From positions 363-40,182 of the forward strand of contig MFKY01000023.1 of assembly GCA_001781175.1 (NCBI GenBank): 39,820 nt of DNA, in the 5' to 3' direction. The stretch is from Candidatus Kaiserbacteria bacterium RIFCSPHIGHO2_01_FULL_55_37 (GTDB lineage Bacteria; Patescibacteriota; Minisyncoccia; Phycocordibacterales; UBA2100). The notes beneath the pieces were generated by a model, which was not told where the DNA came from, did no database searches, and saw only the letters and a program-made list of their open reading frames with translations. Position numbers and translations under genes: made by a program. Positions within the stretch are counted from its first letter, which is position 1. Every line of letters starts with the position of its first letter. Shown piece by piece: positions 4,901 through 39,447 of this stretch.

Positions 4901-5543
4901 CTCCGTTGGGTGCCGTGACGGTGATTCCGGCGTTAGGAGTTGTCGCAACGCACCGGGTCGGACGTTCACATCCGTTGGAGTCAGTGCCTCCGCCGGTTGG
5001 GTAGTACCCCGGCGCGCAAGACACGACGGGCATGAGCGGACATGTTGAGTTCGCGGGCATGCGCGGCGATACCGGCGTTGCGCACGCAAGTGCCAACGCC
5101 CCACGCGTCTTGGGGCCGGTGGCGCCGTATCCGGTACTGGACGGATTGCCGGAAGAAACGACGCCGTTGGCGGCTTGCCATGATCGGAGCGCTGCTTGCG
5201 TAAGGGAACCGAAGTAACCCGACGACGCATCGCTCGCGAGATACCCTCGCGCTACGAGAAAGCCCTGTAGTTCTTTCACATCAGGGCCCGATGAGCCGAT
5301 GGTGAGGAAGCGCGTTATCTGGGTACATCTGCCGGACGTGCTGCTTGGTGTCGGTATTGAGGGCACCGAAAGCGTGGTGGGCTGTTGTCCGGTTTGGCTG
5401 GCAAGCTGTGCCTGCAGTCGTGTGAGTTGCGCAAGGAGAGCCTGAACTTGCGCCTGGAGATCGTTCGTGCTTTGCGCCGACGCGAGGAGAGGCGAGGCGA
5501 GTAAGAGGAGGCCGGCACTAGCGAACGCGATCTTTTTGAACAT
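1911..5543 (-). CDS. Giant secreted surface protein (1210 aa): signal peptide, coiled coil, PG_binding_1-like domain, multiple Ig/FN3-like modules, two WWVH modules, 4-Cys module, C-terminal DUF4214-like repeats
   Basis: ORF-track 1911..5729 was trimmed to ATG 5543, which gives the signal peptide MFKKIAFASAGLLLLASPLLASA. Coiled coil: LQAQVQALLAQLTRLQAQLA. PG-binding-like segment: GPDVKELQGFLVARGYL..GYFGSLTQAALRSWQ. DUF4214-like segments: GLNYWVGQ... and GPNYWVGQLQGGASRDSVLQNFINSAEF. Confidence 0.85.
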   Translation of the reverse strand: MFKKIAFASAGLLLLASPLLASAQSTNDLQAQVQALLAQLTRLQAQLASQTGQQPTTLSVPSIPTPSSTSGRCTQITRFLTIGSSGPDVKELQGFLVARGYLASDASSGYFGSLTQAALRSWQAANGVVSSGNPSSTGYGATGPKTRGALALACATPVSPRMPANSTCPLMPVVSCAPGYYPTGGGTDSNGCERPTRCVATTPNAGITVTAPNGGEQWEIGQLNTVTWAPYGYNPDVNPARDVNVFLERLDGSTVGQVMDTGKASLHTYFNIGGYDNWAEPGRYYVRASNRVTGATDRSDAPFTLLTRPTADLKVNGSDGPMVLTHNQPITISWSSLAGSTCNIHGVQESPDAPYAYITGVPASGTRSVYAYVYTSIPEYKNFILLRCSRGGTFADDEIIINPSTSQARLQVVSPNGGEQLTLNGQTSVINYRASGIKSVSIALYKSDQWMKWLAKDQVPTAAAQSGDVYQFTWTPTTAELGAVNELGNTFKVYVTGQKADGTGYVDDKSDLPFSFVALPTPTSGLVIGLTPQPSSTIAPQATIVPLTKFTLRNSGGTSIQLQRVKIQQTGLGTDGAVHHVVITSENGSTNSSPAGFDADHLLSMPLPDAWISAGETKTYTLSAAMQANLASYAGGTIALRLLGIVTPSRVSGQLPIDGSTATVNVSLDVCSNQSLYGYRCWTTPIPVSQMPIQPPMKDALCSPDGTRATLSWGGVPNATSYPVRVDDPALTCTGPLMSSLGNAGCVSPTEYVNDGLTGTSVSVSITPNTMYEWWVHGLNASGWSSVTRKSFICRQSTPTPVPSITVTNTTRPNITFTYQNLPPGVQGVFLTNNNTETNVASAPIASGSGSGGISMPSVSPAGTYYLKVLATVNNALIAMSQPFTIGPEMPQLTPPQPSALSAACNGGTSVTLSWTRGPGAVYSFPRIAASAQTSQSACPSGYSWASPTSCYQDNVTTNSITYPVQAGTIYSWWVHNSATSPNSAWSNVSSQTYGSSFTCSTPAAQSCTFNGQTIASGSSVTAYQASSVAAGQTCAAQTRTCQNGSLSGSYTNASCTVQSGSSVPSTVNAFWTSMYSCVLGRAADTAGLNYWVGQTNSVGSLLTAYRNFYDSAEYRARGTSDTDYVNSLYQCVLFRAPDSGPNYWVGQLQGGASRDSVLQNFINSAEFQGTQGPTLRSATGLTIASANTQMLSQLASALNAIIAILNSLK

Positions 5544-5559
5544 ACTAAAAATGTTTGAG

Positions 5560-6491: not shown

Positions 6492-8978
6492 CTACCTCTC
6501 CCGGAACTCAGGCGAGATATTGACCGTCACATCTTCGGGAGTCGTAGGTGAGCCGTCGACACCGGTACAGGTGAGTGTAAATGTCGTTCTCTGAGTGATT
6601 GCCGCCGACGTTTGGCCGTCGGGGCCCGGCGTGCTCGTCCAATTGTTACCGGATGTACCTGCAATGGTCCACGCAGCGCCGTCGCTCGGCGTGACGGTGC
6701 AACTTGAGACATTCGCGACATCCCAATACAGCGTGGTCCTGTCACCCTCTAACACCAAAGAGGGCGTCGCAAACAAGTGACCTGTGAAAAGACCTGACCT
6801 ATTGAAAGTGGTCGGCGGATATTGGCAGACGGAAGAGCCGTTCGAGCAAAAGGACGGAGAGACGCAGGTGGGGCCGCTCGTCACCTCACACTGCGCATTG
6901 GTGTGCCGGACGGTCTGTGCGGAGCAAGTATACGTGTCCAGGCAGGAGCAGGATGCGTATTGGTATGCGGAGGAACCGGAGAGCGTCCCGTTCACGCAGC
7001 GGCGGGATTGGGATATTGATGAGCATACCGTTCCGGATGGTGCGGCCCGTTGTGAGTAGAATGTGTAGGAAGAGTTGTGCGGGACGGTCACGCCGTCGAG
7101 CGTACAGGAAGAAGGACCTCTCACCGAGCAGGAGGCGTATGCGTATGAGCCGGAGAGCGTGCCGTTGGTGCAGGTGCGTGTCTGCGAGAGGCAGGCCTGT
7201 CCGTACGGAACGGTGCTCGCTTCATATGCCGTGACGGACGAACCGTGACCGACGGTACTTCCGTTGAACGTGCAGTTCTGATAGACGGTCAGTGTGCCGC
7301 CCTGGGGAGAACACGAGTACGTGTTGCCGCTCGCGTCCCATACCGTGCCGTTGTAGCTGCCTGCGGTGTACACCGTAGGCGAGCGCGAGACGTTGGGGGT
7401 GACGTCGCCCACGGTCTGGATGTAGAAGCGGGACGCGTTCGCGGATGAGTACGTGAGAGTAGAGCCTGTGCCTCCGGAGATGATGCTTGTGGGTGAGAGG
7501 GTGACGGAGCAGGTGGGCGCGGAAGCCGTACACGTGAAGGTACGATAAGTATACGTACTGTACGTGTAGGTAGCGTAGGTATCGTAATTGTATGTGTATG
7601 AACCATACGGGGTTGGCCCCGCTACTCCGTGTACCCACCACGTGGTGGGCGCGCCCGGCGTTACCGTTATCGTTCTGCTGTTAGTTCCGATGGGAATATT
7701 GTCGTCAATGTAGTCGGTATAACCGGGAGAGCCTGTCCACCCTGTGGACGCCGAAGGGGTCCACCACTGCTGACGGCAGCCGCCGTTGTTGTTGGGGCCG
7801 CTCACACCGCCGCAGTTGACGGCGGTATCGTCGACGCGGAGCGCATAGCTTGTCGCGCCGGTAGACGGCCCCCACGAAATCGTGGCCTGCGTACCGTCGG
7901 CGGAACATGAGTAGTTGCCTGCGGAGGTGTTGGCCGGTTCCGTAGGTGGTGAACAGCTGAAGGGGTGCGCTGTCGTGGTACTCCACGCATAATTTACAGA
8001 GCCATCCGGACTCGCTAGCGAGTGCACCCACCACCGATATGACCTGCCCGGCACGATGGGAGCGGTATACGAGGTCGCAGTGATTGTTTGATTCTGATAT
8101 GGCGCCTGCCAATCGATTTCGAGTTCGTTTGGCGCATTGCAATACCACGAGTGGTAGTAGGGGGCGATGCTGCATCCGTCGGCGGTGGTGTCGTCGAGGC
8201 GCAACGGATACCCGACTAAGCTTGGAGTGTTGACCGCATTCCACGAGAACGTCACGCTTGTGCCGTCCGCGCTGCATGTATATGTTTGCCCGGTCGGCTC
8301 CGGCGGCGGAGGATACACCGTGAGCGTGGCGTTATGCCAGCCGTCGGTGCCGCCGCTTCCGTACGCTTCACAGGAATACGTGGTCGAGGAAGACGGCGCA
8401 ACATACGTGGAGCCTGATGTGCCGACGTATCCGATAGGACTTATGTATACCCAGGAGTTGGCATTTGAAGTCGACCAGCGCAGATAGGTGCCGGAACCGG
8501 GACTGGAGTTGACTGCATTCTTGTCCAACGTGAGGGAGCACGAGGCGGGCGGCGACGGAGGCGGCGGAGGGCCGCAGGAGAATGACTGCTGTGTGGCCGG
8601 ACTCCAGACTCCTCCGTTCTGCGCATGCACCCACCACGAGTACGAGGTACTCGGCGTAATGGAAAGTGCGATGCCGGAATACGCCGTTTCATACAGATAC
8701 TCGACTCCCTGATAGCATCCCCAATTGCCGGGACCGCTCACATTTCCGGCGCAATATCCGGGTCCGTCGACACGGATCGGATAGTTCGAGGCGCCCGATA
8801 CAGAACCCCACGAAAGCGTGACCTGCGTCCCCGCACTGTTACATGAAGGCGTATACATCGCCGGCTGTTGGAGCGCCGAAGCTTGGAGCGGAAAGAGTGC
8901 GGCAAACAGAACGAAAAATCCGGGCACGAAAACGATACGGATAGCCTGACGAAACCGTGTGGTACTGCTGGAAGTCAT
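6492..8978 (-). CDS. Giant secreted surface protein (828 aa): three WWVH modules, Ig-like modules, two 4-Cys modules, shared C-terminal Ig-like domain
   Basis: ORF-track 6492..9110 was trimmed to ATG 8978, giving the signal/anchor MTSSSTTRFRQAIRIVFVPGFFVLFAALFPLQASA. The longer form would overlap the upstream CDS. The start is 5 nt after the upstream stop. Confidence 0.85.
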   Translation of the reverse strand: MTSSSTTRFRQAIRIVFVPGFFVLFAALFPLQASALQQPAMYTPSCNSAGTQVTLSWGSVSGASNYPIRVDGPGYCAGNVSGPGNWGCYQGVEYLYETAYSGIALSITPSTSYSWWVHAQNGGVWSPATQQSFSCGPPPPPSPPASCSLTLDKNAVNSSPGSGTYLRWSTSNANSWVYISPIGYVGTSGSTYVAPSSSTTYSCEAYGSGGTDGWHNATLTVYPPPPEPTGQTYTCSADGTSVTFSWNAVNTPSLVGYPLRLDDTTADGCSIAPYYHSWYCNAPNELEIDWQAPYQNQTITATSYTAPIVPGRSYRWWVHSLASPDGSVNYAWSTTTAHPFSCSPPTEPANTSAGNYSCSADGTQATISWGPSTGATSYALRVDDTAVNCGGVSGPNNNGGCRQQWWTPSASTGWTGSPGYTDYIDDNIPIGTNSRTITVTPGAPTTWWVHGVAGPTPYGSYTYNYDTYATYTYSTYTYRTFTCTASAPTCSVTLSPTSIISGGTGSTLTYSSANASRFYIQTVGDVTPNVSRSPTVYTAGSYNGTVWDASGNTYSCSPQGGTLTVYQNCTFNGSTVGHGSSVTAYEASTVPYGQACLSQTRTCTNGTLSGSYAYASCSVRGPSSCTLDGVTVPHNSSYTFYSQRAAPSGTVCSSISQSRRCVNGTLSGSSAYQYASCSCLDTYTCSAQTVRHTNAQCEVTSGPTCVSPSFCSNGSSVCQYPPTTFNRSGLFTGHLFATPSLVLEGDRTTLYWDVANVSSCTVTPSDGAAWTIAGTSGNNWTSTPGPDGQTSAAITQRTTFTLTCTGVDGSPTTPEDVTVNISPEFRER

Positions 8979-12442: not shown

Positions 12443-14584
12443 CTACTTTCTTGAAGCGATGACTGCGTCTGCCGCGGTCTTTGGGACGATTGCGTAGTGA
12501 CTGAATTCGAGGTTCGGGACGCCGCGGCCTTCGGTGAGCGAGCGGAGTTGTGTGGTGAAGCCGAAGAGTTCGGAGAGCGGGACCTTCGCGGTGATGATAC
12601 GCGCCTGTCCGCGCTCGCCCATCGCTTCTATGGCGCCGCGTTTGCTGTTTATCATGCCCGTCACGTCGCCCATGAATTTCTCGGGGACGACGACTTCCAA
12701 TTTCATGATAGGTTCGAGCAACACGGGCTTCGCTTTTTGCATCGCTTCCTGCATGGCATTGATGGCGGCGAGCTTGAAGGCGATTTCGGAAGAGTCCACG
12801 TCGTGGTAGGAGCCATCGTAGAGCTCGACGGAAATATCGACGACCGGGAATCCCGCCTGGATGCCGCGTTCCATCGCCTCGATGAGTCCTTTCTTCACCG
12901 GCTGGATGTACTCCTGCGGGATGACGCCTCCCTTGATGTTGTTGACGAACTCGAAGTGGTCATCGCGTTCGACGTTGTTCTTCACTTTCTTCTCCGGATC
13001 TACTGGCTCCATCGGCTTGATGCGGATTTTCACGTGACCGTACTGACCGCGACCGCCCGTCTGTTTGATGTGTTTGTATTCGACGTCCGACGTGCCTTGA
13101 ATGGTCTCGCGGTACGCGACTTGCGGCTTGCCGGTCGTCGCCTGCACGCCGAATTCACGCTTCATGCGGTCAACGATAATTTCAAGGTGGAGCTCACCCA
13201 TGCCGGAAACGATAGTTTCCATCGTTTCAGGGTCGGATTTGATGCGGAATGTCGGGTCTTCGTCGGAAAGCTTCGAAAGTGCCATGCCCATTTTCTCCTG
13301 GTCGGCTTTCGTGTTGGGCTCGATGCGCATTGAAACGACCGGCTCGGGGAACACGATGGATTCAAGTGCGATAGGGTGCGCAACGTCACAGAGTGTGTGT
13401 CCGATTTTCACTTCTTTCATGCCGACGGCCGCGGCGATTTCTCCCGCATAGACGGTTTTCACATCTTCACGCTTATCAGCCTGCAATCGTACGATGCGTC
13501 CCACGCGTTCTTTCTTGTTGTTGGCGGAATTGTATACCGTGTCCCCTGCAGTGAAGGTGCCCGAATACACGCGGAAGAACGAGAGCTGTCCGACGAACGG
13601 GTCGGTCTGTATTTTGAAGACGAGTGCCGCGAACGGCGCTTCGTCGGATGCGGGACGTGTTTCTTCCGCACCCGTATCCGTATTGATGCCTTTTGATTCC
13701 GGCATGTCCTTCGGCGACGGAAGGTAATCCACGACCGCATCGAGTACGAGCTGCACGCCTTTATTCTTGAGCGAGCTTCCCGTGAGGACGGGGAAGATTT
13801 GGTTGGCGATAACGCCCTTACGCAGCGTCTTCTTGAGGACGTCGTGTGGGATTTCTTTGCCGTCGAGGAAATCCGCCATCACCGCGTCGTCATTCTCGAC
13901 GATGCGCTCCACGAGTTCGTGACGATATTTCTTGGCCTCGTCCATCATGTCTGCGGGAATATCGTACGCGATGACATTCTTTCCCATCTCCCCTTCGAAT
14001 TTGTATGCCTTCATGCTAAGCAAATCGATGATTCCCTCGAATTTTTCCTCAAGCCCGATGGGGATCTGGAATCGCACCGCCTTGTTGGAAAGCCGGTCGA
14101 GAATGCTTGCGTATGATTTTTCAAACGACGCGCCCGTACGGTCGAGTTTGTTGATATAGCAGATGCGCGGCACATTCGCCTCTTCGGCGTAGCGCCAGTT
14201 GGTCTCGGACTGCGGTTCCACTCCGGCGACGCCGTCGAATACGACTACCGCGCCGTCGAGCACACGCATCGAGCGCTTCACTTCGGAAGTAAAGTCGATG
14301 TGTCCGGGAGTGTCGATGATATTGAAACGTACTTTCGCCGAGAGGTCGGCACCCATGTACGAAGGATTCCAGAAACACGTGATGGCGGCGGCGGTGATGG
14401 TAATGCCGCGCTCGCGCTCCTGCTCCATCCAGTCGGTGACGGTATTGCCCTCGTGCACTTCGCCGATTTTGTGCGACTCGCCCGTGTAATACAAAATGCG
14501 TTCCGATGTAGTCGTCTTGCCCGCATCCACATGCGCGACGATTCCGAAGTTTCTTACTTTCTCTAGAGGATAATCACGAGCCAT
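12443..14584 (-). CDS. fusA: Translation elongation factor G
   Basis: 713 aa with AHVDAGKTTT (G1), DTPGHIDF (G3) and full EF-G domain order through the C-terminus. Confidence 0.98.
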   Translation of the reverse strand: MARDYPLEKVRNFGIVAHVDAGKTTTSERILYYTGESHKIGEVHEGNTVTDWMEQERERGITITAAAITCFWNPSYMGADLSAKVRFNIIDTPGHIDFTSEVKRSMRVLDGAVVVFDGVAGVEPQSETNWRYAEEANVPRICYINKLDRTGASFEKSYASILDRLSNKAVRFQIPIGLEEKFEGIIDLLSMKAYKFEGEMGKNVIAYDIPADMMDEAKKYRHELVERIVENDDAVMADFLDGKEIPHDVLKKTLRKGVIANQIFPVLTGSSLKNKGVQLVLDAVVDYLPSPKDMPESKGINTDTGAEETRPASDEAPFAALVFKIQTDPFVGQLSFFRVYSGTFTAGDTVYNSANNKKERVGRIVRLQADKREDVKTVYAGEIAAAVGMKEVKIGHTLCDVAHPIALESIVFPEPVVSMRIEPNTKADQEKMGMALSKLSDEDPTFRIKSDPETMETIVSGMGELHLEIIVDRMKREFGVQATTGKPQVAYRETIQGTSDVEYKHIKQTGGRGQYGHVKIRIKPMEPVDPEKKVKNNVERDDHFEFVNNIKGGVIPQEYIQPVKKGLIEAMERGIQAGFPVVDISVELYDGSYHDVDSSEIAFKLAAINAMQEAMQKAKPVLLEPIMKLEVVVPEKFMGDVTGMINSKRGAIEAMGERGQARIITAKVPLSELFGFTTQLRSLTEGRGVPNLEFSHYAIVPKTAADAVIASRK

Positions 14585-14684: not shown

Positions 14685-14758
14685 CCAGTAATGTAACGGA
14701 AAATAAGTAAAAAAGCAACGTCACCGCCGTTCACAGGAAATCGTTTTATCCGTTTCCC

Positions 14759-14986
14759 TTAATTCCGAACCGCCAATCCCCAAATGAATGTGACGAGCCC
14801 TACGAGATTTGCGAGTGTTGAGACGGGCACTACAAAGAATGCTACAAAGCTCGTCAAGGGACCCGGGCCCGGTGGCGCGCCACCGGAAAGAAAGAAGGCT
14901 GCCAAAGGCACAAGACCGAGAATCAAAACCAGCGTATAAGAGGCGGCTGAGATAAAGAAAAGCTTTTGAGCACTATATGTATTCAT
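14759..14986 (-). CDS. Small hypothetical membrane protein (75 aa)
   Basis: 2-3 hydrophobic helices and a PPGPGP turn. ATG 14986 is used, with GTG 15004 as an alternative. No family was recognised. Confidence 0.45.
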   Translation of the reverse strand: MNTYSAQKLFFISAASYTLVLILGLVPLAAFFLSGGAPPGPGPLTSFVAFFVVPVSTLANLVGLVTFIWGLAVRN

Positions 14987-15037
14987 ACCAATAGCGTACC
15001 ACACGGGGTGTACTGCTGTCTTTGGTATGTGGAAAAC

Positions 15038-15079
15038 CTACCACGCCAAGTGGGCAAACGCCTTGTTGGCTTCCTCCAT
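15038..15079 (-). pseudogene. Relic copy C of the rpsG 3' end (encodes MEEANKAFAHLAW-stop)
   Basis: CTACCACGCCAAGTGGGCAAACGCCTTGTTGGCTTCCTCCAT matches 16763..16804 at 35/42 positions. It begins exactly at a stop codon. Confidence 0.8.
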
Positions 15080-15114
15080 GCACTACGTTGTTTTTTGAAT
15101 AGAGGGGACATTGG

Positions 15115-15120
15115 TAGTAT
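15115..15120 (+). promoter_or_regulatory. -10-like TAGTAT, 9 nt upstream of ATG 15130
   Basis: Read directly from the sequence. No SD is present. Confidence 0.4.
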
Positions 15121-15129
15121 TGTTTCCAC

Positions 15130-16179
15130 ATGCTCCGTTATTCCGGCGTGATGATACTTGCGTGTCTTGTGCTAGCCGCGGTCGCTTTCTATGAATATCG
15201 CGCCGTGCAGACCCCGCCCTATATGCACGGTGACAAAATCAAGATACTCGAAGCCATACAGTATTGGAAAGACCGTATTTCCGTAGCGGGGCCCGAACGT
15301 GCGCACGACGAGATGGCGCGACAGGGCGAGAACATGGCCGCCTCGCGTCATATACTTGCCCATACATTCGGCGAGGCGCTCTATGCCGTTGGGGGGCTCA
15401 CGGACATTTCTTATTGCGGCGCAGGAGAATATCTTTTTGGCTGCTACCACCAATTTATCGGACTCGCGACGGCACAATATGGTTCTTCCGTGATGAGAAA
15501 GCTCAAGGACGGATGCGAGAATGTAAATTCGCCCCTTAATTGCTCGCACGGCATTGGTCATGGACTGATTTCGACGTACGGGTATTCGATGAAGGGGGTA
15601 CAGAAATCACTTGCGGAGTGTCATTCATTCTATGAGCAACAGATGCAACGCGGCATATGTGCGGATGGTATGTTCATGGAATACAATCTGCAGGAGATTA
15701 CGACTCTGGACCAAAATCGTATCCCCAGGACATTCAGTAGTGAGCATGCACTCGAGCCGTGTTTCTCTATCGGATCAGAATTTAAGGACGAATGTATCTA
15801 TGAGCTTCCGCTCTGGTGGTACGCGGCACTTTCTGCGAGCAGCACGGATGTGCACCTGACGTTTGGCACGATGGGAGACTATTGCCGTAAGATTTCCGAC
15901 ACGCACGGTCAAAACATTTGTTTTATCGGAATTGGTTTTCCTGCCGCCCAGTCTCTTCATTTCGACGTGGAAAAAATCGCAGACGCTTGCCGCGCTACGA
16001 GCAGAACTCCGAAAGACTATATGCTTTGCGCTTCCGGCGCGGCCGAGCGATACGTCGAGAACAGCGTCGCGCATGAAAATATCTGCGGAAGACTAGGACT
16101 TACGGGGAACGAAAAAACGTATTGTGAAAAATTTATAGTGTCGTCAAGGCAAAAGGGGTACGCATTAGAAACGCCGTGA
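15130..16179 (+). CDS. Membrane-anchored Cys/His-rich hypothetical protein (349 aa)
   Basis: N-terminal TM segment VMILACLVLAAVAFY, 15 Cys, and His motifs AHTFGEALY and CSHGIGHGL. It is the only plus-strand gene in this block. No family was recognised. Confidence 0.75.
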   Translation: MLRYSGVMILACLVLAAVAFYEYRAVQTPPYMHGDKIKILEAIQYWKDRISVAGPERAHDEMARQGENMAASRHILAHTFGEALYAVGGLTDISYCGAGEYLFGCYHQFIGLATAQYGSSVMRKLKDGCENVNSPLNCSHGIGHGLISTYGYSMKGVQKSLAECHSFYEQQMQRGICADGMFMEYNLQEITTLDQNRIPRTFSSEHALEPCFSIGSEFKDECIYELPLWWYAALSASSTDVHLTFGTMGDYCRKISDTHGQNICFIGIGFPAAQSLHFDVEKIADACRATSRTPKDYMLCASGAAERYVENSVAHENICGRLGLTGNEKTYCEKFIVSSRQKGYALETP

Positions 16180-16207
16180 GAAAACCGGCGTACTGTCTCA
16201 GTTTGCT

Positions 16208-16249
16208 TTACCACGCGAAGTGGGCGAAGGCCTTGTTGGCTTCGGTCAC
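16208..16249 (-). pseudogene. Relic copy B of the rpsG 3' end (encodes VTEANKAFAHFAW-stop)
   Basis: TTACCACGCGAAGTGGGCGAAGGCCTTGTTGGCTTCGGTCAC matches 16763..16804 at 38/42 positions, and the first 30 nt are identical. It overlaps the NTase stop codon by 4 nt. Confidence 0.85.
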
Positions 16250-16755
16250 ACTAGCCGGACGGCCGAGCGTGCTGTACGTTCCAAAAAGACCCGTGTTTCT
16301 TCGTGATTGCAGATGACATCGGCGAGTGAGCACAGGACGGATGTGTTTGGTATTTTTTCTGTGCGCCAGGTCTCGGGAAAAAGGAAAATATCGAGCATCA
16401 TACCGGACTTGTATTCTGTGGCGAGCTTCTCGATGTCAACGCCGAGCAATTCGGACGCTCGTGCGATTCTGCGATGTTTTCTCCCATGAATACTCATGGT
16501 GTCGAGCCATGCGAGATATGTTTTTATGAAACGTCTAAGGGGCAGCCAGCGTGTGCCCATGCGGACACGCAACTCGTGTCCCATGTCTGTCCACCACTGC
16601 CGCGAAATGTCTTCGTCGACGATAAGGACGAGGTCGGCGTCATTCCCCGAGCCGTCACGTAGCACACTACCGAACAACTCAACGTGGTGTATCGACGGAG
16701 TGGCCGCTGTCAACTTTTGAGCAATTTGTTGCGCATCTTCAAGCGTGACGCGCAT
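16246..16755 (-). CDS. Minimal nucleotidyltransferase (Pol-beta fold, MNT-like) domain protein (169 aa)
   Basis: ORF-track 16246..16884 was trimmed to ATG 16755, because the upstream part overlaps rpsG out of frame. HHVELFGSVLRDGSGNDADLVLIVDED carries the GS...DxD signature. The start is 7 nt after the rpsG stop. Confidence 0.8.
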   Translation of the reverse strand: MRVTLEDAQQIAQKLTAATPSIHHVELFGSVLRDGSGNDADLVLIVDEDISRQWWTDMGHELRVRMGTRWLPLRRFIKTYLAWLDTMSIHGRKHRRIARASELLGVDIEKLATEYKSGMMLDIFLFPETWRTEKIPNTSVLCSLADVICNHEETRVFLERTARSAVRLV

Positions 16756-16762
16756 ACGGGAG

Positions 16763-17224
16763 TTACCACGCGAAGTGGGCGAAGGCCTTGTTCGCTTCTG
16801 CCATCCTATGAGTGGTCTCTTTTTTGGTGACCGCGCTTCCCTCTCCTTTGTGTGCGGCGAGGATTTCGGCGAGCAGAGATTCATGCATCGGCTTACCTTT
16901 CGTACCCTCGGCGGCTTCCACTATCCAGCGCATGCCGAGCGCCATTCTGCGGGCAGGGTTCACCTCGCGGGGCACCTGATAATTGGCACCACCCACGCGG
17001 CGTGAGCGCACTTCCACCGCCGGAGACGCCTTTTCGAGCGCATCTTCAAGGACGGTGACCGGGTCACCCTCTTTCTTCAATTCCTCCATCACCTTGTAGA
17101 CGATTTTGCGGGCGGTGTCTTTCTTGCCGCGTTCCATCACGTAATTGATGAGCTTCGCAACCTTAAAGGAACCGTACACTTCGTCCGGCTGAGGCTGTTT
17201 TCTATTTTTTGTAGGGCGTCGCAT
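16763..17224 (-). CDS. rpsG: 30S ribosomal protein S7
   Basis: 153 aa. VEVRSRRVGGANYQVP and the C-terminus HRMAEANKAFAHFAW are classical S7 sequences. Confidence 0.98.
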   Translation of the reverse strand: MRRPTKNRKQPQPDEVYGSFKVAKLINYVMERGKKDTARKIVYKVMEELKKEGDPVTVLEDALEKASPAVEVRSRRVGGANYQVPREVNPARRMALGMRWIVEAAEGTKGKPMHESLLAEILAAHKGEGSAVTKKETTHRMAEANKAFAHFAW

Positions 17225-17227
17225 ATA

Positions 17228-17644
17228 TTATTTGGCTGCTTTTGGTCTCTTGGCACCGTAGTTCGAACGGCCGCGGCGGCGCTTCTCGACGCCTGTCGCA
17301 TCCAATTTGCCGCGTACTATCGTGTAGCGCACACCGATGTCCTTCACACGTCCACCGCGGATGAGAACGACGGAGTGTTCTTGTAGGGTGTGGCCCTCTC
17401 CCGGAATGTACGCGGTGACTTCCATGCCGTTGGTGAGGCGTACGCGGGCGATTTTACGGATAGCGGAGTTCGGTTTGCGGGGGGTCTTCGTCGTGACACG
17501 GGTGCAGACGCCGCGCTTGAAGGGCGCCGCATAGAAAGAAGGGCGGTTCTGGAGCGTGTTGAAACCGCGCGAAAGCGCGATGGTCTTCGTGCGCCAGGTC
17601 TTTTTGGCCCGGCCTTTGCGTGTAAGTTGATTTATGGTCGACAT
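17228..17644 (-). CDS. rpsL: 30S ribosomal protein S12
   Basis: 138 aa. [35 protein letters not shown] are classical S12 sequences. The stop is 3 nt before the rpsG start. Confidence 0.98.
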
Positions 17645-22457: not shown

Positions 22458-23924
22458 CTAAAAGGCGCGGCCGTCGGCCGCTCCTTTTTTCGTGTACCAC
22501 AACCCGCCGAACATGAGGGCGTATGCCCCGAACATCCACCATGCGCTGAATGATGCGACCGATACCGAGGCAAACGGGAGAGCCGCAAAGAACTGCGCGA
22601 CGCCGATGATGTATGCGAGCAATGCGTACGCAGGAAACGCAATAAACGTCCCGAGCGAGCCGAACAATATCCCCGCCATCGCGGAGATGACGGAGAGTCC
22701 CATTGCCCACGGCACCACAACGAGCGCAAGAAGATTCGCCGGCAGTGCGACGAGTGAGAGAAGCCCATTTTGATACAACAGAAGCGGCAGTACCGTCATT
22801 TGCGTACCGAGTGTCGAGGCGGCAATCTCGCGCAGTGCGAATTTCTCCGGTATCCAATAAAGCCACCGCGCGAATACGGGAGAGAAAAGAACGAGCCCGA
22901 GCGTCGCGAGTACCGATAATTGGAATCCCGGGTCAAACGCGAAAATATACGGGTTCCAAAGCACCATCACGAGTACGACGACGCTAAGCGCACGAAGTGC
23001 CAGATACATACGCCCCGTCATGCGCGCGATGAGCGGGAGGAGTGCCATCGCGCCGGCACGCGTCGCACTCGGTGCCATGCCTGTCATGAGCACGATGAAC
23101 ACGACGATGAGCACACTCGCCGATAGTTGTGCGAGGCGCGACATTCCCGCAAGCAATTTTCCGGCCAAGTTCATCACGATTGTTATGTTGTATCCGGAAA
23201 GCACGATGATGTGCACGAGCCCGACGGCAATGAAAATGTCCGAGTACTCCTTTCCCACTCCGCGTTTGTCCCCCACCGTAATGCCGCCGGCAAGTCCCGA
23301 CTCCGGCTCCGGCAAAACCGCCTGTAACCCTTCCAGATATTTTTGTTTCGTCCAAATCGCCGCCGTCCGCAGAGGGTTTTTGTATCCTTCCGCAATTTTT
23401 TCCGCTTGTGCGAAAGAGAGCGTATACAAAATCCTGTCTTTGGCGAGGAACATCGGATAGTTGAATTGTCTGCCAAGCGTCGTTTCGAAACTTTCCGGCA
23501 GTCCGAGTTTCCCCTTGACCCGGACAACGTCCCCGTAATGCACTTCCGTATGCGGCGGCACTACGGCGAGCACGCTGATATCACCGACGCGTATGCGCAG
23601 CCGCACATTGCCCTCGCGAACATCGGGTTCGTCAACGACGAGACCGTCAACGGTCACCGTCTCCCCAAGATGCGAGGTGAGTTCCGGAGTACCATCCAGC
23701 ACCGCAAAATCCATACGGACAATCCCTGCCACACATGCGGCGAGTGCGACCGAGATAATCATCAACTGCTTCCATTTTGGTCTTTCGAAGTATGCAAAAG
23801 CGAGCGCGGTGAGAGAAAGTAAAAATAAAAAAGCCGCGAAAGGCCATGGCACGGAAAAGAACGAGCGCGCGAGAACCCCCGCCAAGAATCCTCCGACTAT
23901 CGCAGAGAGAACTCCCGGCGCCAT
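22458..23924 (-). CDS. comEC: ComEC/Rec2 DNA-uptake channel protein, lacking the MBL domain (488 aa)
   Basis: Polytopic protein. The N-terminal OB/DUF4131-like region (GETVTVDGLVVDEPDVREGNVRLRIRV) is followed by the competence membrane domain. The start is 3 nt after the rnhA stop. Confidence 0.88.
   Translation of the reverse strand: MAPGVLSAIVGGFLAGVLARSFFSVPWPFAAFLFLLSLTALAFAYFERPKWKQLMIISVALAACVAGIVRMDFAVLDGTPELTSHLGETVTVDGLVVDEPDVREGNVRLRIRVGDISVLAVVPPHTEVHYGDVVRVKGKLGLPESFETTLGRQFNYPMFLAKDRILYTLSFAQAEKIAEGYKNPLRTAAIWTKQKYLEGLQAVLPEPESGLAGGITVGDKRGVGKEYSDIFIAVGLVHIIVLSGYNITIVMNLAGKLLAGMSRLAQLSASVLIVVFIVLMTGMAPSATRAGAMALLPLIARMTGRMYLALRALSVVVLVMVLWNPYIFAFDPGFQLSVLATLGLVLFSPVFARWLYWIPEKFALREIAASTLGTQMTVLPLLLYQNGLLSLVALPANLLALVVVPWAMGLSVISAMAGILFGSLGTFIAFPAYALLAYIIGVAQFFAALPFASVSVASFSAWWMFGAYALMFGGLWYTKKGAADGRAF
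22460..22490 (+). terminator. Intrinsic terminator (lies inside the 3' end of the convergent comEC CDS)
   Basis: AAAAGGCGCGGCC-GTC-GGCCGCTCCTTTTTT: a 9-bp stem with one mismatch, followed by T6. Confidence 0.6.
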
Positions 23925-24425: not shown

Positions 24426-26114
24426 TTATACCGATATGGGCAGGATATCCACAATGCGCAAGGCGAGGCCACCGCGGTATGAATCGCGCTCTATCGTTGC
24501 GAGCAGACTCGCGAATTGTCCCGGCTCCGGCTCAAATGAGAAATCTTGAGGCGACTTGAAAAAATCGAACGCGCGCGCGGAATTCCCGCTCGTGCGGCAT
24601 TCGAGCATGACCTCGACGTGATTGTTCTCCTTCCCGAAACGTTTCACCCCTGTGATGGTCGTGTTGCTCAGAAGGAAGACCGGCTTCGGATTTCCGACAC
24701 CGAAAGGCGCGAGCTTCGAAACTTCTCTGAAGAGCGCCGACGAGATATCAGAAAGGGCGAGAGACACGTCGTGTTCAAGTGCGACTCTATCCGCACGAGG
24801 CGGTAACTTTTCTGCGGCACGCGTGAGTACCTCCGGCAATTGATGCACCTGCTCGTGTGAAACGGTAAAGCCGCCTGACGCAGCATGCCCTCCGCATTCC
24901 TCGAAAACGTCCCCTGCGTTCTCAAAAAGCTCGGCGAGAGACACGTCGCCATCCGAACGGCACGAGCCTTTCAGTTTCCCGTTCGCGTCCCGTCCCCACA
25001 GACACACGATGCCGCCTCTGTCCGACATCAAAGAGTTAGCCGCGAGACCCAGAAGCGCCGGCTTCCATTCGGGATTTCCCAAGACGACGACGCGGTCGTT
25101 CTCTTTGTATCGCTCTTTCACGTGGGTCCGCGCTTGTTTTACCAGACTCGCGACCACTCCCTTTCTCTTCGTGTTCAGTTTCTCGAGTTGCGCAGCCAGG
25201 CTTTCGGCTTCGGCAACATCGCGTGTAACGAGAAGCCGCAGCGCCAAGTCCGGCTCATCCATCCGCGAAGCCGCGTTCACGCGAGGTGCGATAGAAAATC
25301 CGATGTCACTTTCAGAAAGTTCATTCTGTCTCAGACGAAGCTTGTTGCAGAGCGCCTGAATACCGGGCCGCGGTGATTTGCGCAGTACCTGTAGACCCCA
25401 ATGGGTGAGTGCGCGATTTTCTCCTATAAGCGGCACCATATCGGCGACGGTCGCGATGGCGACCATATCGAGCAGCCACTTTTCCCAACCTTCCGGGATA
25501 TCGTGTTTCCCGGCAAGAGTGACTGCTGCGCCCTTTCGAAGCTCGCCTGTCGGCGAGCGAAGTAGGGCCTGCGCAAGCTTGAAAGCGACCGCAGCCCCGC
25601 ACAAATGCGGGAATGGGTATGGTGCGATTTTCGGATTCAACACTGCAACCGCATCGGGAAGTTCTCCCGAAATTTCATGGTGGTCGGTCACGATGACGTC
25701 AACGCCTTTTTCTTTGGCGTACGCAACCGCGTCAATCGCAGTCGTACCGACGTCCACCGTGATGATGAGTTTCACACCGCGCGCGGCGAGTGCCTCTATC
25801 GCTTCAGCGTGAAATCCGTATCCCTCCCTGTCGCGATGCGGCAGATACACCTCGAAATTTTCATACCCGATTTTATTGAAAAGGTCGGAAAGCAGCGCGG
25901 CACCCGGGATACCATCGCAATCAAAATCCGCATACACCGCAATGCGCTCGTTCTTTTCTATCGCCGACGACAATCGCGCCACGGCAACATCCATCCCGTG
26001 CAATAAGAACGGGTCGTGCGTGTGTAGTTCATAATCGGGATTGAGAAAAGCCGAGACTTCGGCAGCGTCGGATATTCCCCGTTTTGCAAGAAGCCTTACC
26101 ACGAGGTCGTGCAT
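24426..26114 (-). CDS. recJ: Single-stranded-DNA-specific exonuclease RecJ
   Basis: DHH-family motifs YADFDCDGI, VTDHHE and GGHAASGGF. 562 aa. Confidence 0.95.
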   Translation of the reverse strand: MHDLVVRLLAKRGISDAAEVSAFLNPDYELHTHDPFLLHGMDVAVARLSSAIEKNERIAVYADFDCDGIPGAALLSDLFNKIGYENFEVYLPHRDREGYGFHAEAIEALAARGVKLIITVDVGTTAIDAVAYAKEKGVDVIVTDHHEISGELPDAVAVLNPKIAPYPFPHLCGAAVAFKLAQALLRSPTGELRKGAAVTLAGKHDIPEGWEKWLLDMVAIATVADMVPLIGENRALTHWGLQVLRKSPRPGIQALCNKLRLRQNELSESDIGFSIAPRVNAASRMDEPDLALRLLVTRDVAEAESLAAQLEKLNTKRKGVVASLVKQARTHVKERYKENDRVVVLGNPEWKPALLGLAANSLMSDRGGIVCLWGRDANGKLKGSCRSDGDVSLAELFENAGDVFEECGGHAASGGFTVSHEQVHQLPEVLTRAAEKLPPRADRVALEHDVSLALSDISSALFREVSKLAPFGVGNPKPVFLLSNTTITGVKRFGKENNHVEVMLECRTSGNSARAFDFFKSPQDFSFEPEPGQFASLLATIERDSYRGGLALRIVDILPISV

Positions 26115-32750: not shown

Positions 32751-33968
32751 TTAGATATTTTGCGATAGAGAGTAGATGGGGGTTATCATCGCGACCGCGA
32801 AGAACCCGACCGCTCCTCCGATGATGAGCATAAGGAACGGCTCGATGATGGTCGACATATCCTTGGTTTTGCGGTCCACTTCATCCTCATAAAATACCGC
32901 CAGACGCTTCAGCATTTCGGCGACCTGGCCGGTCTCCTCACCGACCGCCATCATTTCCCCGACGAATGCCGGATACAGGTCTTCGCGACGAACGAACGCC
33001 GCCGCGAGCGATTGTCCCCCGCTCACACCCAAAGACGCGTCTTTGACGACCGCGCGGAAATAGGAATTTTGTACGACCTCACCCACGATATCGAGCGAGG
33101 TGATGACGTCAACACCCGACGAGAGGAGCGATGCGAGCGTGCGCGATGTGCGTGCGGCATTCACTTCGCGCACCATCGGTCCGATGAGCGGTAAACGCAG
33201 GAAGAAAAAATCCAATCCGCGTTTTCCCCATGTGGTACGTGCCGCGACATAGATAAGCGCACCGATGCCGGCGATACCGCCAAGCGCCACAAATGTGTAC
33301 TCCACGAGAAAATTGCTCACACTGATGACGAATTGCGTCGACGCCGGAAGCTCCGCTTTCATTTCCGCGAACGTCTGCGCGAGTGTCGGCACGACCTCTA
33401 TCATCATGAGTATGCCGATGCCGAATATGGCGAAGAGGATGACGCACGGATAGATGAGTGCACCGCGGATTTTTTTCTTGAGAGAGTACATCCGTTCCAT
33501 CTGGTCCGATATCACCTGGAGCGACGCGGCAAGGTCTCCTCCCTCTTCGCCCGCGCGCACCATCGCCACAAATAATTTTGAGAATACGCGCGGATATTTT
33601 GCGAGTGAGTCGTGCAGGGTATCCCCGCGCCGGACGTCCGAGGATATCTGCGATATGACCGACGACATTTTCAGGTTTTTTGTCTGTCGCTCTATTACAG
33701 CCAGCGCCCGCGCAAGCGCTAATCCGGCACCGAGCATCGCGCCCAAATTGCGTGCGAGTAGTATTTTCTCGTACTCGGTGATGCGCGAGAACATCGCATT
33801 CCAATAATCCATCGAGAGCCACCCGTTTCCTCCCGTCTCTTCCAGAGAAATAATCCTTCCGCCCTCCTGGCGGACGATTCCGTAGAGCTCGAACCGGTCG
33901 GCCGCTGCTGCTACGCCTTTGTAGACTTCTCCGTCACTCTTTTCAGCGGTGTAGATAAACTTCGCCAT
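32751..33968 (-). CDS. pilC: Type IV pilus assembly platform protein PilC (GspF family)
   Basis: 405 aa with two T2SSF repeats and 3 TM segments. LARNLGAMLGAGLAL... and EMMAVGEETGQVAEML are family-typical sequences. Confidence 0.95.
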   Translation of the reverse strand: MAKFIYTAEKSDGEVYKGVAAAADRFELYGIVRQEGGRIISLEETGGNGWLSMDYWNAMFSRITEYEKILLARNLGAMLGAGLALARALAVIERQTKNLKMSSVISQISSDVRRGDTLHDSLAKYPRVFSKLFVAMVRAGEEGGDLAASLQVISDQMERMYSLKKKIRGALIYPCVILFAIFGIGILMMIEVVPTLAQTFAEMKAELPASTQFVISVSNFLVEYTFVALGGIAGIGALIYVAARTTWGKRGLDFFFLRLPLIGPMVREVNAARTSRTLASLLSSGVDVITSLDIVGEVVQNSYFRAVVKDASLGVSGGQSLAAAFVRREDLYPAFVGEMMAVGEETGQVAEMLKRLAVFYEDEVDRKTKDMSTIIEPFLMLIIGGAVGFFAVAMITPIYSLSQNI

Positions 33969-37707: not shown

Positions 37708-39447
37708 CTACTCCGTGATGACGCGGAGCACTTCTTCTATCGTCGTGATGCCCTGCACCGACTTGAAAAAGCCGTCTTCGCTCATCGTGAGCATGCCCTC
37801 ACTTCGCGCCTGTTTTTCGATAGCGTCTCCCGTTTCATTTTTCATGATGAGTTCTTTGATAGTAGAGGTCACGGGCAACACCTCGTAGATGCCCACGCGT
37901 CCGGAATAGCCGGAGGGCGTTTTGCCGTTTTCTTTCGGCTTGAAAAAAGGAATATTCTTCCACGTGGCGTCGGGAGGAACGGCTTTCTCTTCCTTAAGCG
38001 CTTTCAAGACGACACCCGGATCTATGACGTGTTCAAGTTGTGCCTGTTCGTCCCGCGAAAGTTCGTATTTTTCTTTGTCGGGAGAAAGTTTGCGCACGAG
38101 CCGTTGACCGATAATGACGCGCAGCGTGGAAACGAGCAGGAACGGCTCGATGCCCATGTCCAAAAGCCGCGCGACGGCGCCGGCGGCGGAATTCGTGTGC
38201 AACGTCGAGAGGACGAGGTGACCTGTGAGCGCGGCGTTCACCGCGAGCGAGGCGGTTTCTTTGTCGCGGATTTCGCCCACCATAACGATATCCGGGTCCT
38301 GACGCACGAGGGAACGAAGACCGTTGGCGAACGTGAATCCTATCTCGGGCCGCACCTGCGTCTGATTGACGCGCGCCATCTGATATTCGATAGGGTCTTC
38401 GATGGTCGAGATATTTACATCGGGCGTATTTACGATGTCGAGCAATGTGTAGAGCGTCGTCGATTTTCCGGCGCCGGTCGGCCCGGTCGTGAGAATCATG
38501 CCGGTCGTCTTGCGCATCGCCTCGTGCATGCGTTCAAGCCCGGTTCCGTGGAATCCGATAGATTCGAGCGTGAACCCCGAAATGGAATCGCGTAAAAGGC
38601 GCATGACGATTTTCTCGCCGTAGTAGGTCGGCAAAATGGAAACGCGGAACGATATTTTCTCTCCTCCGCTTTCCGCGCCGAACCGTCCGTCTTGCGGCAA
38701 GCGGTGTTCGTCGAGACGCATATTTGCGAGCACTTTGATGCGCGCGGTGATGGCCGCGGCGGCGTTCTTCGGAAGCTCCATCGCATCGTGCAAGATGCCG
38801 TCGATGCGGTACCGGATAAGGAGTGTTTGTTCGAGCGGCTCGATGTGGATGTCCGAAGCATTTTGCGCATTCGCGTGCCGTATCAAAGTATCGACGATGC
38901 GTACCGTGGGCGTACCTTCCGCTATCTCTTTGAGATTTTCTTCTTTCCCCGCCCCGGCGGCCTTTTCGAGTGCGGCCGTTTCGCGCCCGATGACATCTCC
39001 GAGGTTGTCTTTGAGGCCCTGTTGGTACTGCTTGAGCGCGGCCTTGATGGATGCCACGTCGGTCAGACGCGGCAGGATCTTGAGGTGGGTCTTCTTCTTG
39101 ATAAAATCTATCGCCGCGAGGTCGTCGGTATCGAGCATTGCCACCTCGAGCTCTTCGCCGCGATTGTTGTAAGCGATGATGTTGTTGCGGCGCGCGACCG
39201 GTTCGGGAATGAGGGACAGCACGTCAAGATTGATGGCGGTCCCTATAAGCGACACAAAGGGAATGCCGAGGATGTACGCGTACGTGCGGCGCAGCTCGTC
39301 CTCGCCTATCGCGCTGCGCGCTTTCAAAATATCGCCGACAGGCTGCCCCGATCTTTTTGCCTCCGCCTCCGCCGCGTCAAAATCCTTCGCCGAGACAAGC
39401 CCCGCATCGGCGAGGAATGATTTGAGATGTGTGTCCGAGATGTACAT
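37708..39447 (-). CDS. pilB: Type IV pilus assembly ATPase PilB (GspE family)
   Basis: 579 aa with an N-terminal T2SSE_N-like domain, Walker A GPTGAGKSTT, and Asp/His boxes. Confidence 0.96.
   Translation of the reverse strand: MYISDTHLKSFLADAGLVSAKDFDAAEAEAKRSGQPVGDILKARSAIGEDELRRTYAYILGIPFVSLIGTAINLDVLSLIPEPVARRNNIIAYNNRGEELEVAMLDTDDLAAIDFIKKKTHLKILPRLTDVASIKAALKQYQQGLKDNLGDVIGRETAALEKAAGAGKEENLKEIAEGTPTVRIVDTLIRHANAQNASDIHIEPLEQTLLIRYRIDGILHDAMELPKNAAAAITARIKVLANMRLDEHRLPQDGRFGAESGGEKISFRVSILPTYYGEKIVMRLLRDSISGFTLESIGFHGTGLERMHEAMRKTTGMILTTGPTGAGKSTTLYTLLDIVNTPDVNISTIEDPIEYQMARVNQTQVRPEIGFTFANGLRSLVRQDPDIVMVGEIRDKETASLAVNAALTGHLVLSTLHTNSAAGAVARLLDMGIEPFLLVSTLRVIIGQRLVRKLSPDKEKYELSRDEQAQLEHVIDPGVVLKALKEEKAVPPDATWKNIPFFKPKENGKTPSGYSGRVGIYEVLPVTSTIKELIMKNETGDAIEKQARSEGMLTMSEDGFFKSVQGITTIEEVLRVITE

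Follow-up and report, generated by a model that had tools for sequence, protein, structure and literature searches.

Orphan rpsG ends and the rpsG-fusA junction as a hotspot of gene gain and loss in Kaiserbacteria-like bacteria

Why does the 3' end of rpsG, the gene for ribosomal protein S7, occur three times within the str operon of Candidatus Kaiserbacteria bacterium RIFCSPHIGHO2_01_FULL_55_37? The question arose from a stretch of 39,820 nucleotides (nt) of its draft genome (assembly GCA_001781175.1, contig MFKY01000023.1, positions 363 to 40,182; the whole stretch is hereafter called the window). An earlier interpretation made from the letters alone (the sequence-only reading) had proposed that small cassettes insert serially and site-specifically into the end of rpsG, so that the gene end is regenerated and the old one displaced. 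We found that the junction of rpsG and fusA in the Kaiserbacteria-like family is a hotspot for gene gain and loss. The orphan gene ends are probably scars of transformation-type homologous and illegitimate recombination at this permissive hotspot, with no dedicated cassette system involved.

The source organism is a Kaiserbacteria-like bacterium (Paceibacterota, candidate phyla radiation, CPR), and its S7 is 85-93% identical to that of metagenome-assembled genomes of Candidatus Kaiserbacteria, Paceibacterota and Parcubacteria. In the window, the str operon is encoded on the minus strand in the order rpsL, rpsG, a 169-amino-acid (aa) open reading frame (ORF), a 349-aa ORF on the plus strand, an 81-aa ORF and fusA, with a gap of 2,178 nt between rpsG and fusA. 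The features of the locus, from rpsL towards fusA, are as follows.

17228..17644, minus strand: rpsL (ribosomal protein S12), first gene of the str operon; 138-aa ORF, with PF00164 precomputed for the identical gene in contig L001
16763..17224, minus strand: rpsG (ribosomal protein S7), intact and functional; Pfam Ribosomal_S7, E = 1.2e-50
16763..16808, minus strand: copy A, the live rpsG 3' end, ending in HRMAEANKAFAHFAW and the stop codon; identified by sequence comparison and peptide pattern
16246..16755, minus strand: 169-aa ORF for a putative minimal (MNT-like) nucleotidyltransferase (NTase), starting 7 nt past the rpsG stop
16245..16249, no strand: GTCAC (GTGAC on the gene strand), a 5-nt direct repeat at the rpsG-proximal edge of a 1,525-bp block; edges set against the related locus L196
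16208..16253, minus strand: copy B, a relic rpsG tail that abuts the stop codon of the 169-aa ORF; core of ~37 nt at 16208-16244
15130..16179, plus strand (opposite to rpsG): 349-aa Cys/His-rich protein, predicted to be membrane-anchored and all-alpha; ORF, family alignment and AlphaFold2 (AF2) model
15038..15095, minus strand: copy C, an older relic rpsG tail, MEEANKAFAHLAW and stop; 58 nt, 76% identical to copy A
14759..15004, minus strand: 81-aa predicted membrane protein, last gene in the inserted block; ORF, also called as a gene in independent contigs
14720..14724, no strand: GTCAC, second copy, at the fusA-proximal edge of the 1,525-bp block; edges set against L196
14667..14705, minus strand: conserved TTTCCGTTACATTACTG motif and terminator-like hairpin upstream of fusA; terminator scan and alignment
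12443..14584, minus strand: fusA (EF-G); 713-aa ORF, with EF-G Pfam domains on the identical gene

The three copies lie on the same strand, and the identities given for them by the sequence-only reading over 42 nt were reproduced (38/42 for A and B, 35/42 for A and C, 34/42 for B and C). Each copy ends in a stop codon, as stated (TAA, TAA and TAG), and three of the four differences between B and C in the 36-nt core are indeed synonymous or stop-to-stop. The claim that no similarity extends beyond 42 nt was wrong, with A and B alike over 46 nt at 89% and A and C over 58 nt at 76%. The last 30 nt of copy B are identical to those of copy A, and the 16 nt upstream hold 5-6 mismatches. A small imperfect hairpin had also been described in the repeat; folding as single-stranded DNA was no better than for shuffled sequences (z = -0.28, -1.63 and +0.24 for the three copies), and the repeats had no match in Rfam. 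The degenerate pattern EANKAFAH(F/L)AW matched exactly three times in the window, where none was expected (100 shuffles), and no other gene-end duplication was found there. The spacings of 555 and 1170 nt between copies are both multiples of three; a reading-frame meaning was dismissed as coincidence, the equivalent spacings in the related loci L179 and L186 not being multiples of three.

An S7 protein identical to that of the window was encoded on 18 contigs from several samples and assemblers. Nine of these were long enough to compare (L001-L009, from independent samples and pipelines) and showed 0-1 mismatch over 2.7 kb. Since nine independent assemblies agree over this length, the arrangement is real and fixed in the population. 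An assembly artefact is ruled out by the same agreement, and the short contigs L010 and L013, which end near rpsG, continue into the same NTase sequence. A dispersed repeat unrelated to rpsG was likewise ruled out by pattern and repeat searches of the window. Neither of these two explanations, both of which the sequence-only reading had listed for checking, applies, and the repeats are insertion scars at the rpsG end.

Relatives were taken to be contigs encoding close relatives of S7 or homologues of the cargo proteins, and they comprised 13 lineages whose S7 is 85-100% identical. In all 13, rpsG and fusA were 0.7-4.2 kb apart, and about 12 different gene sets lay between them. The NTase gene occurs alone in L196, with a 202-aa ORF in L199, and in L200 together with a 159-aa ORF, a gene for a FAD-binding protein and a 125-aa ORF. 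A lipoprotein-like ORF and a RelE-like pair fill the interval of L174, and HicB/HicA, a PaaX-like gene, a 126-aa ORF and DUF5662 that of L186-L194. Four contigs, L179-L182, encode an identical S7 protein, yet their cargo differs: a 237-aa ORF, the Cys/His gene, an 85-aa ORF, PEMT and UDG in L179; a Cu-oxidase, PEMT and UDG in L180; PEMT, UDG and others in L181; and the Cys/His gene, PEMT and UDG in L182. UDG with or without DoxD was found in L183-L185, five other genes in L175, and FabA was also among the cargo of related intervals. Cargo on the opposite strand comprised the Cys/His gene (window, L179 and L182) and the PaaX-like gene (L186).

For comparison, two scans of large genome and metagenome contig collections with S7 provided a control set of distant relatives only (at most 63% identity); these scans were dominated by the universal MAEANKAF peptide pattern. 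A second S7 C-terminus was found at none of 160 distant loci and a genuine DNA-level rpsG relic at none of 143 distant rpsG loci, and the fusA start lay within 400 nt of the rpsG stop in 115/132. About 12 gene sets in 13 lineages thus stand against adjacency in most of the distant loci, as would be seen at a hotspot flanked by core genes. A literature search on an insertion hotspot at rpsG/fusA in Patescibacteria found nothing relevant. Eight loci of more distant Paceibacterota or CPR-like bacteria (L015, L019, L095, L097, L099, L102, L108 and L111) have gaps of 0.8-3 kb with no detectable relic, and on account of these gaps splitting of the str operon may reach wider in the phylum than the relic-bearing family.

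A terminator and a conserved motif upstream of fusA, together with the wide gap tolerated in 13/13 lineages, suggest that fusA is expressed independently, which would account for insertions being accepted in the interval by this family and not by others. Several cargo genes begin 6-45 nt past the rpsG stop and therefore probably ride on transcription of the str operon. Two smaller observations concern the region upstream of fusA. The hairpin reads GGGACGCC-TTCG-GGCGTTTT in the window and GAGACGCGC-ACA-GCGCGTTTTT in L196 (~6530-6570), the changes being compensatory, and the fusA leader of ~85 nt in the window may hold an independent promoter.

Relic rpsG ends were found in five lineages and a relic fusA start in a sixth (L196). 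Those in the relatives of the window are as follows.

L179: 33 nt, 100% identical, after the 237-aa gene
L179: 68-69 nt, 87%, after the Cys/His gene
L182: ~68 nt, decayed to ~64%, beyond the Cys/His gene
L186-L194: 95 nt, 87%, interrupted by a 32-nt insert, after HicBA
L186-L194: 41 nt, 73%, after the PaaX-like gene
L199: 27 nt, immediately downstream of the NTase stop, with a terminator behind it that resembles those after rpsG in relic-free lineages

The 32-nt insert, CTGTGCCCGTCCGCAGCCTTGGCGGAGGAGGG, lies at L186:4039-4070 (a GWB1_52_6-like Kaiserbacteria lineage). Every relic rpsG tail extends to the stop codon, and the junctions with live rpsG lie at -27, -33, about -37, -42, about -58, -68 and -95 from that stop. 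As the junction positions differ, there is no common crossover core. Downstream of the L182 relic come the terminator and PEMT upstream region that also succeed the live rpsG stop in L181, and L181 can therefore be regarded as an empty site for the Cys/His gene. Both empty sites and different cargo, which the sequence-only reading had proposed to look for among relatives, were thus found.

In all three loci with three copies (window, L179 and L186), identity to the live end drops with distance from rpsG. Copy 3 of L186 differs from copy 1 by 10 synonymous and one non-synonymous codon changes (P = 4e-7), and copy C of the window differs from copy A by six synonymous and five non-synonymous changes (P about 0.01). 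Because this divergence is mainly synonymous, L186 copy 3 and window copy C appear to have once ended functional rpsG genes in different lineages, which argues for DNA exchange between diverged relatives and not for duplication in place followed by decay. Judged from the sequences, some relics are of foreign origin. The proposal that each copy had once served as the end of a functional rpsG therefore stands for these two; other relics, such as L179 copy 3 and the L182 relic, show ordinary neutral decay. Copies 1 and 2 of L179 are identical (33/33) and share a lineage-specific AAA codon, which indicates that some events used perfectly matching short homology. The shared -68 junction of the Cys/His gene occurs only in L179 and L182, between which the Cys/His, PEMT and UDG sequences are 84%, 79% and 88% identical, and it was attributed to one inherited event in close relatives.

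The other flank is represented by L196, a sister of the window organism (fusA 96.9% and S7 98% identical). Its interval consists of rpsG, the NTase gene and a terminator, has no rpsG relic, and contains a 36-nt orphan fusA start. This orphan 5' end (L196:6578-6613; GCA_016217925.1, JACRFK010000004.1) reads ATGGCACGGGATTACCCACTCGAAAAAGTCCGCAAC, encodes MARDYPLEKVRN, and lies ~65 nt upstream of the real fusA start. MARDYPLEKVRN is the window-type fusA N-terminus, whereas the fusA of L196 itself starts with MSRDY. The relic can be explained as a scar made from the second flanking core gene: an imported fragment, comprising rpsG, the NTase gene and part of fusA, would have been joined illegitimately at its far end.

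The same comparison bears on the history of the interval in the window. The sequence-only reading had taken the NTase gene, which lies next to rpsG, as the youngest cassette. Its homologues occupy the same interval in L196, L199 and L200 at 80, 69 and 52% identity, paralleling host divergence, and the junction between the rpsG stop and the NTase start (TAACTCC...ATG) is conserved. For both reasons the NTase gene is an old resident, which contradicts the proposed polarity. Downstream of the NTase gene, L196 continues with the stop codon, TC-TTGC...TTTCCGTTACATTACTG and the terminator. In the window, the same series of TTGC, motif and terminator starts at 14718, beyond the 81-aa gene. The window thus differs from L196 by an indel of 1,525 bp (14720-16244) placed just after the NTase stop, which comprises copy B, the Cys/His gene, copy C and the 81-aa gene. 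Removing it in silico leaves stop-CG-TTGC, with the same 2-nt spacing as in L196 (stop-TC-TTGC). This reconstructed empty site, together with the window-type fusA relic in L196, implies that a window-type genome once had the NTase gene, the terminator and fusA adjacent. The block boundaries can be read off the alignment, and we infer the direction of the indel. In the simplest history, the Cys/His gene would have entered an rpsG end and left copy C behind, probably in another lineage where it lies next to rpsG, as it does in L182. A segment of chromosome that began at about -37 of this rpsG and stopped shortly beyond the 81-aa gene would later have been inserted behind the NTase stop by illegitimate recombination via the GTGAC microhomology. 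Copy B would then be the tail of a foreign rpsG, as opposed to the resident gene's own end pushed aside. No clear import tract emerged when mismatches between relatives were profiled along rpsG and fusA.

A general mechanism can be put forward that would leave such traces. The rpsG-fusA junction would be permissive since fusA has its own expression, and foreign DNA of diverged relatives would probably be imported by the competence machinery. Integration by the general recombination of the cell would pair homologous DNA at one end, within the highly conserved rpsG tail or within fusA, and close the other end by an illegitimate or microhomology join; alternatively, a circularised fragment with a short rpsG tail could enter by a single crossover. 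Only products with an intact rpsG would survive, and an insertion within the last rpsG codons would leave an orphan tail of arbitrary length. Because intact S7 is selected, surviving insertions in rpsG carry a replacement tail. Lineages whose rpsG genes are ~80% identical overall differ at 1-3 positions within the last 36 nt, and this unusual conservation at the nucleotide level makes the tail a usable anchor. The junctions next to it are specific to each event, as seen in the varied rpsG junctions and the L196 fusA 5' relic, and incoming DNA from a diverged relative is recognized in L186 copy 3, window copy C and the window-type fusA relic of L196.

We infer DNA uptake and the recombination enzymes. 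The window encodes ComEC (22458-23924), RecJ (24426-26114), a PilC-like protein (T2SSF, 32751-33968) and a PilB-like protein (T2SSE, 37708-39447); ComEC, RecJ and the type IV pilus PilB/PilC-like proteins are components expected for DNA uptake and processing. RecA was not found in the 39.8-kb window. Patescibacteria have been reported to be naturally competent (PMC12455944). In homology-facilitated illegitimate recombination, one end is joined by homology and the other illegitimately, with 3-10 bp of microhomology, and a single crossover with a truncated homologous fragment in a re-circularised molecule yields gene-end duplications of variable length (PMC3240628). The 5-nt GTGAC was seen at the edges of the window block, and no microhomology was evident at the junction of L179 copy 2.

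The main competing explanation keeps the core of the sequence-only reading: small cassettes would integrate site-specifically into the rpsG 3' end via a tyrosine or serine recombinase acting in trans, in an integron-like manner or like cis-mobilizable elements (CIMEs), with the gene end regenerated and the old one pushed outwards. We consider this unlikely. The fall of relic identity with distance from rpsG in the three triple-copy loci is what it would predict, as are the resemblance of L181 to a precise empty site, the common -68 boundary of the Cys/His cassette in L179 and L182, the identity of L179 copies 1 and 2, and cargo of toxin-antitoxin and small accessory genes resembling that of integrons. 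It is countered by the seven different junction positions, which have no core in common beyond the trivial gene end, and by the lack of significant structure in the repeat. A site in rpsG cannot yield the fusA 5' relic of L196; the 1,525-bp block sits behind the NTase stop and not in rpsG, with a 5-nt repeat at its edges; and 7/13 lineages have cargo and no rpsG relic. Pfam searches detected no recombinase domain among the ORFs of the window, in agreement with the sequence-only reading, or in the 13 related intervals and their flanks. The rpsG-tail pattern and both cargo genes were absent from the viral contigs searched, and a phage or plasmid vehicle was not found. Insertion at the rpsG end with regeneration of that end therefore holds for the family, and the site-specific mechanism proposed for it is not supported in view of the scattered junctions, the missing recombinase, the unstructured repeat and the L196 fusA relic. 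A bolder form of the idea is that the orphan tails are working sites of a family-specific cassette system, in which units of a gene and an rpsG tail excise as circles and re-enter the live rpsG end, catalysed by a trans-acting recombinase or by RecA on ~30 nt of perfect homology; this seems to us more doubtful.

Several points weigh against recombination without a dedicated system and have to be set beside those above. The relic starts exactly at the NTase stop in both the window and L199, and each of these relics matches the rpsG of its own genome at two diagnostic synonymous sites. This abutment looks cassette-like, as a gene plus its site, unless gene conversion or a shared ancestral event with an 11-nt deletion produced it, and independent events with the same cassette end would favour such a cassette. 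It is because of the abutment in these two lineages that we retain a small share of belief in a trans-acting site-specific system and a slightly smaller one in a working gene-capture platform. The shared -68 junction of L179 and L182 could also be a fixed cassette end, and the 1,525-bp indel could have arisen in the L196 lineage, by deletion between the GTGAC repeats. A recombinase may be encoded elsewhere in the genome, the loci and their flanks being what was seen, and the sample comprises 13 lineages only. Classical homology-facilitated illegitimate recombination, moreover, usually deletes recipient DNA and does not duplicate it (PMC3240628).

Two further explanations either dispense with horizontal import or give the tails a function. 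Local duplication or rearrangement within one genome, by slippage or unequal crossing-over of the rpsG tail and with cargo from the same genome, would account for the identical L179 copies 1 and 2 with their common AAA codon, and Cys/His homologues (40-42%) do occur elsewhere in related genomes (L198 and L203). It is made very unlikely by the synonymous bias in the changes of L186 copy 3 and window copy C, which implies functional ends in different lineages, by the patchy cargo among close relatives (L181 versus L182; window versus L196) and by the foreign, window-type sequence of the L196 fusA relic. That the tails are kept for a function, as an RNA-processing, terminator or translation-coupling signal or as a 13-aa peptide, could be suspected from copies B and C, in which the EANKAFAH(F/L)AW frame is still open to the stop and starts with a GTG overlapping the NTase stop (GTGA) in B and with an ATG in C. 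This we find hardly credible: L179 copy 3, the L182 relic and L186 copy 2 (with its 32-nt insert) are decaying, with non-synonymous changes and frame disruption, no significant structure or Rfam match was obtained, and many lineages are without any relic.

Elements that integrate at the 3' end of a gene and regenerate it are well known, such as the islands in transfer RNA and transfer-messenger RNA genes and phage 21 and e14 in icd. As with integrative and conjugative elements (ICEs), integrative and mobilizable elements (IMEs) and prophages that target 3' ends, the gene at our locus stays intact, an orphan copy lies beyond the insert, and serial events lead to tandem arrays. Such elements carry their integrase gene beside one att site, and CIMEs depend on the integrase of a related element at that site. 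The locus differs from them in having no integrase in any interval examined and inserts of 0.5-1.5 kb with one to three genes. It differs also from the fixed crossover of these elements and of CIMEs in that the length and junction of the rpsG repeat vary with each event (27-95 nt) and that one scar is a fusA 5' end. The sequence-only reading knew of no such targeting of a ribosomal protein gene, but there is precedent: the 3' ends of rplL, rpsI and rpmG are integration sites of streptococcal ICEs, with direct repeats of 12-54 bp (PMC4701971).

With integron arrays and clusters of attC sites lacking integron-integrases (CALINs), the locus shares small, mostly single-gene units between repeats cargo that includes toxin-antitoxin and nucleotidyltransferase genes, and a tendency of younger units to lie nearer the entry point. 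In integrons, attC sites are imperfect palindromes (57-141 nt) whose single strands take up a folded structure, and the cassettes between them are promoterless and co-oriented. The rpsG repeat is instead a coding gene end (27-95 nt) with no significant hairpin; its boundaries vary, the units occur in either orientation, and neither IntI nor attI nor Pc was detected in the loci examined. Homology-facilitated illegitimate recombination, reportedly described by de Vries and Wackernagel in 2002, offers a conserved anchor next to an arbitrary junction, microhomology of 0-10 bp (GTGAC here) and gene-end duplications of variable length. It needs no dedicated recombinase, and a competence apparatus is present in the window. 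Unlike that process, the present case is known from sequences alone, has anchors as short as 27-37 nt, and involves the same rpsG locus hit repeatedly across a whole family. Hotspots of horizontal transfer flanked by conserved core genes were reportedly described by Oliveira et al. in 2017. Many unrelated accessory gene sets in one interval, enriched in toxin-antitoxin and small accessory genes, are common to such hotspots and to our locus, whereas its position inside the normally invariant str operon and the preservation of legible junction scars are unusual. The rpsG-fusA locus is best filed as a core-gene-flanked transfer hotspot with recombination scars that mimic att sites.

Members of the CPR or Patescibacteria have tiny genomes and are not culturable alone, and their acquisition of genes has been inferred only indirectly. 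Here, repeated gene import under the recombination reading has left readable scars within one of the most conserved operons of bacteria: rpsG tails orphaned from foreign genes, a fusA start likewise orphaned and a block with microhomology at its edges. The locus could serve as a natural marker of how often uncultivated lineages recombine, with which donors and by which junction rules, and it indicates that the str operon can be split and used to express accessory and toxin-antitoxin genes. If the junctions were site-specific after all, they would represent a new type of gene-capture system; a working cassette system would make a ribosomal protein gene the anchor of an integron-like platform for gene capture, with the promoter of the str operon driving it.

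The cargo proteins of the window could be characterized in part. The 169-aa protein has a GS-x9-D-x-D nucleotidyltransferase motif and a sub-threshold match to Pfam Polbeta (E = 0.056). Its AF2 model (predicted local distance difference test, pLDDT, 87) has its best fold matches in the Protein Data Bank (PDB) among MNT antitoxins, although these are weak (prob 0.97, E 0.016), and the protein is therefore considered a putative MNT-like nucleotidyltransferase. The 349-aa Cys/His protein gave no Pfam match and no specific PDB match. An alignment of its family contains 30 invariant columns, including 12 Cys and 5 His, and the AF2 model (pLDDT 91) predicts an alpha-helical solenoid, with a transmembrane helix at the N-terminus. 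Homologues occur in the same place and orientation in L179 (58%) and L182 (62%). The 81-aa protein had no significant Pfam match. Among the toxin-antitoxin cargo of relatives, L186:3458-3966 encodes HicB-like and HicA proteins (Pfam HicA, E = 9e-13), and L174:8127-8608 encodes a pair of 74 and 86 aa with sub-threshold YafQ/HigB (RelE-like) matches.

The Cys/His-rich family is small (19 clusters). Its distant members (40-42%; L198:6001-7074 and L203:6001-7062) lie in clusters of several genes of 350-400 aa without known function, and the cluster in L203 adjoins AMP-binding and arylsulfotransferase genes. An 18-nt inverted repeat (window 15027-15044 / 15114-15131, 78% complementary, core ATGTGGAAA / TTTCCACAT) encloses copy C and reaches into the Cys/His start codon. 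The 121 nt containing it fold somewhat better than shuffles (z about -1.6 to -1.8), and it may be a regulatory hairpin for the Cys/His gene or related to the junction, both being possible. Direct repeats unrelated to those of rpsG were seen at 1684-1759 / 5475-5550 (80%) and 2370-2493 / 7122-7245 (72%); they correspond to similar signal-peptide stretches (MLKKIAFASAGFLLLAS...) and to internal domains in large secreted or surface paralogues encoded downstream of fusA.

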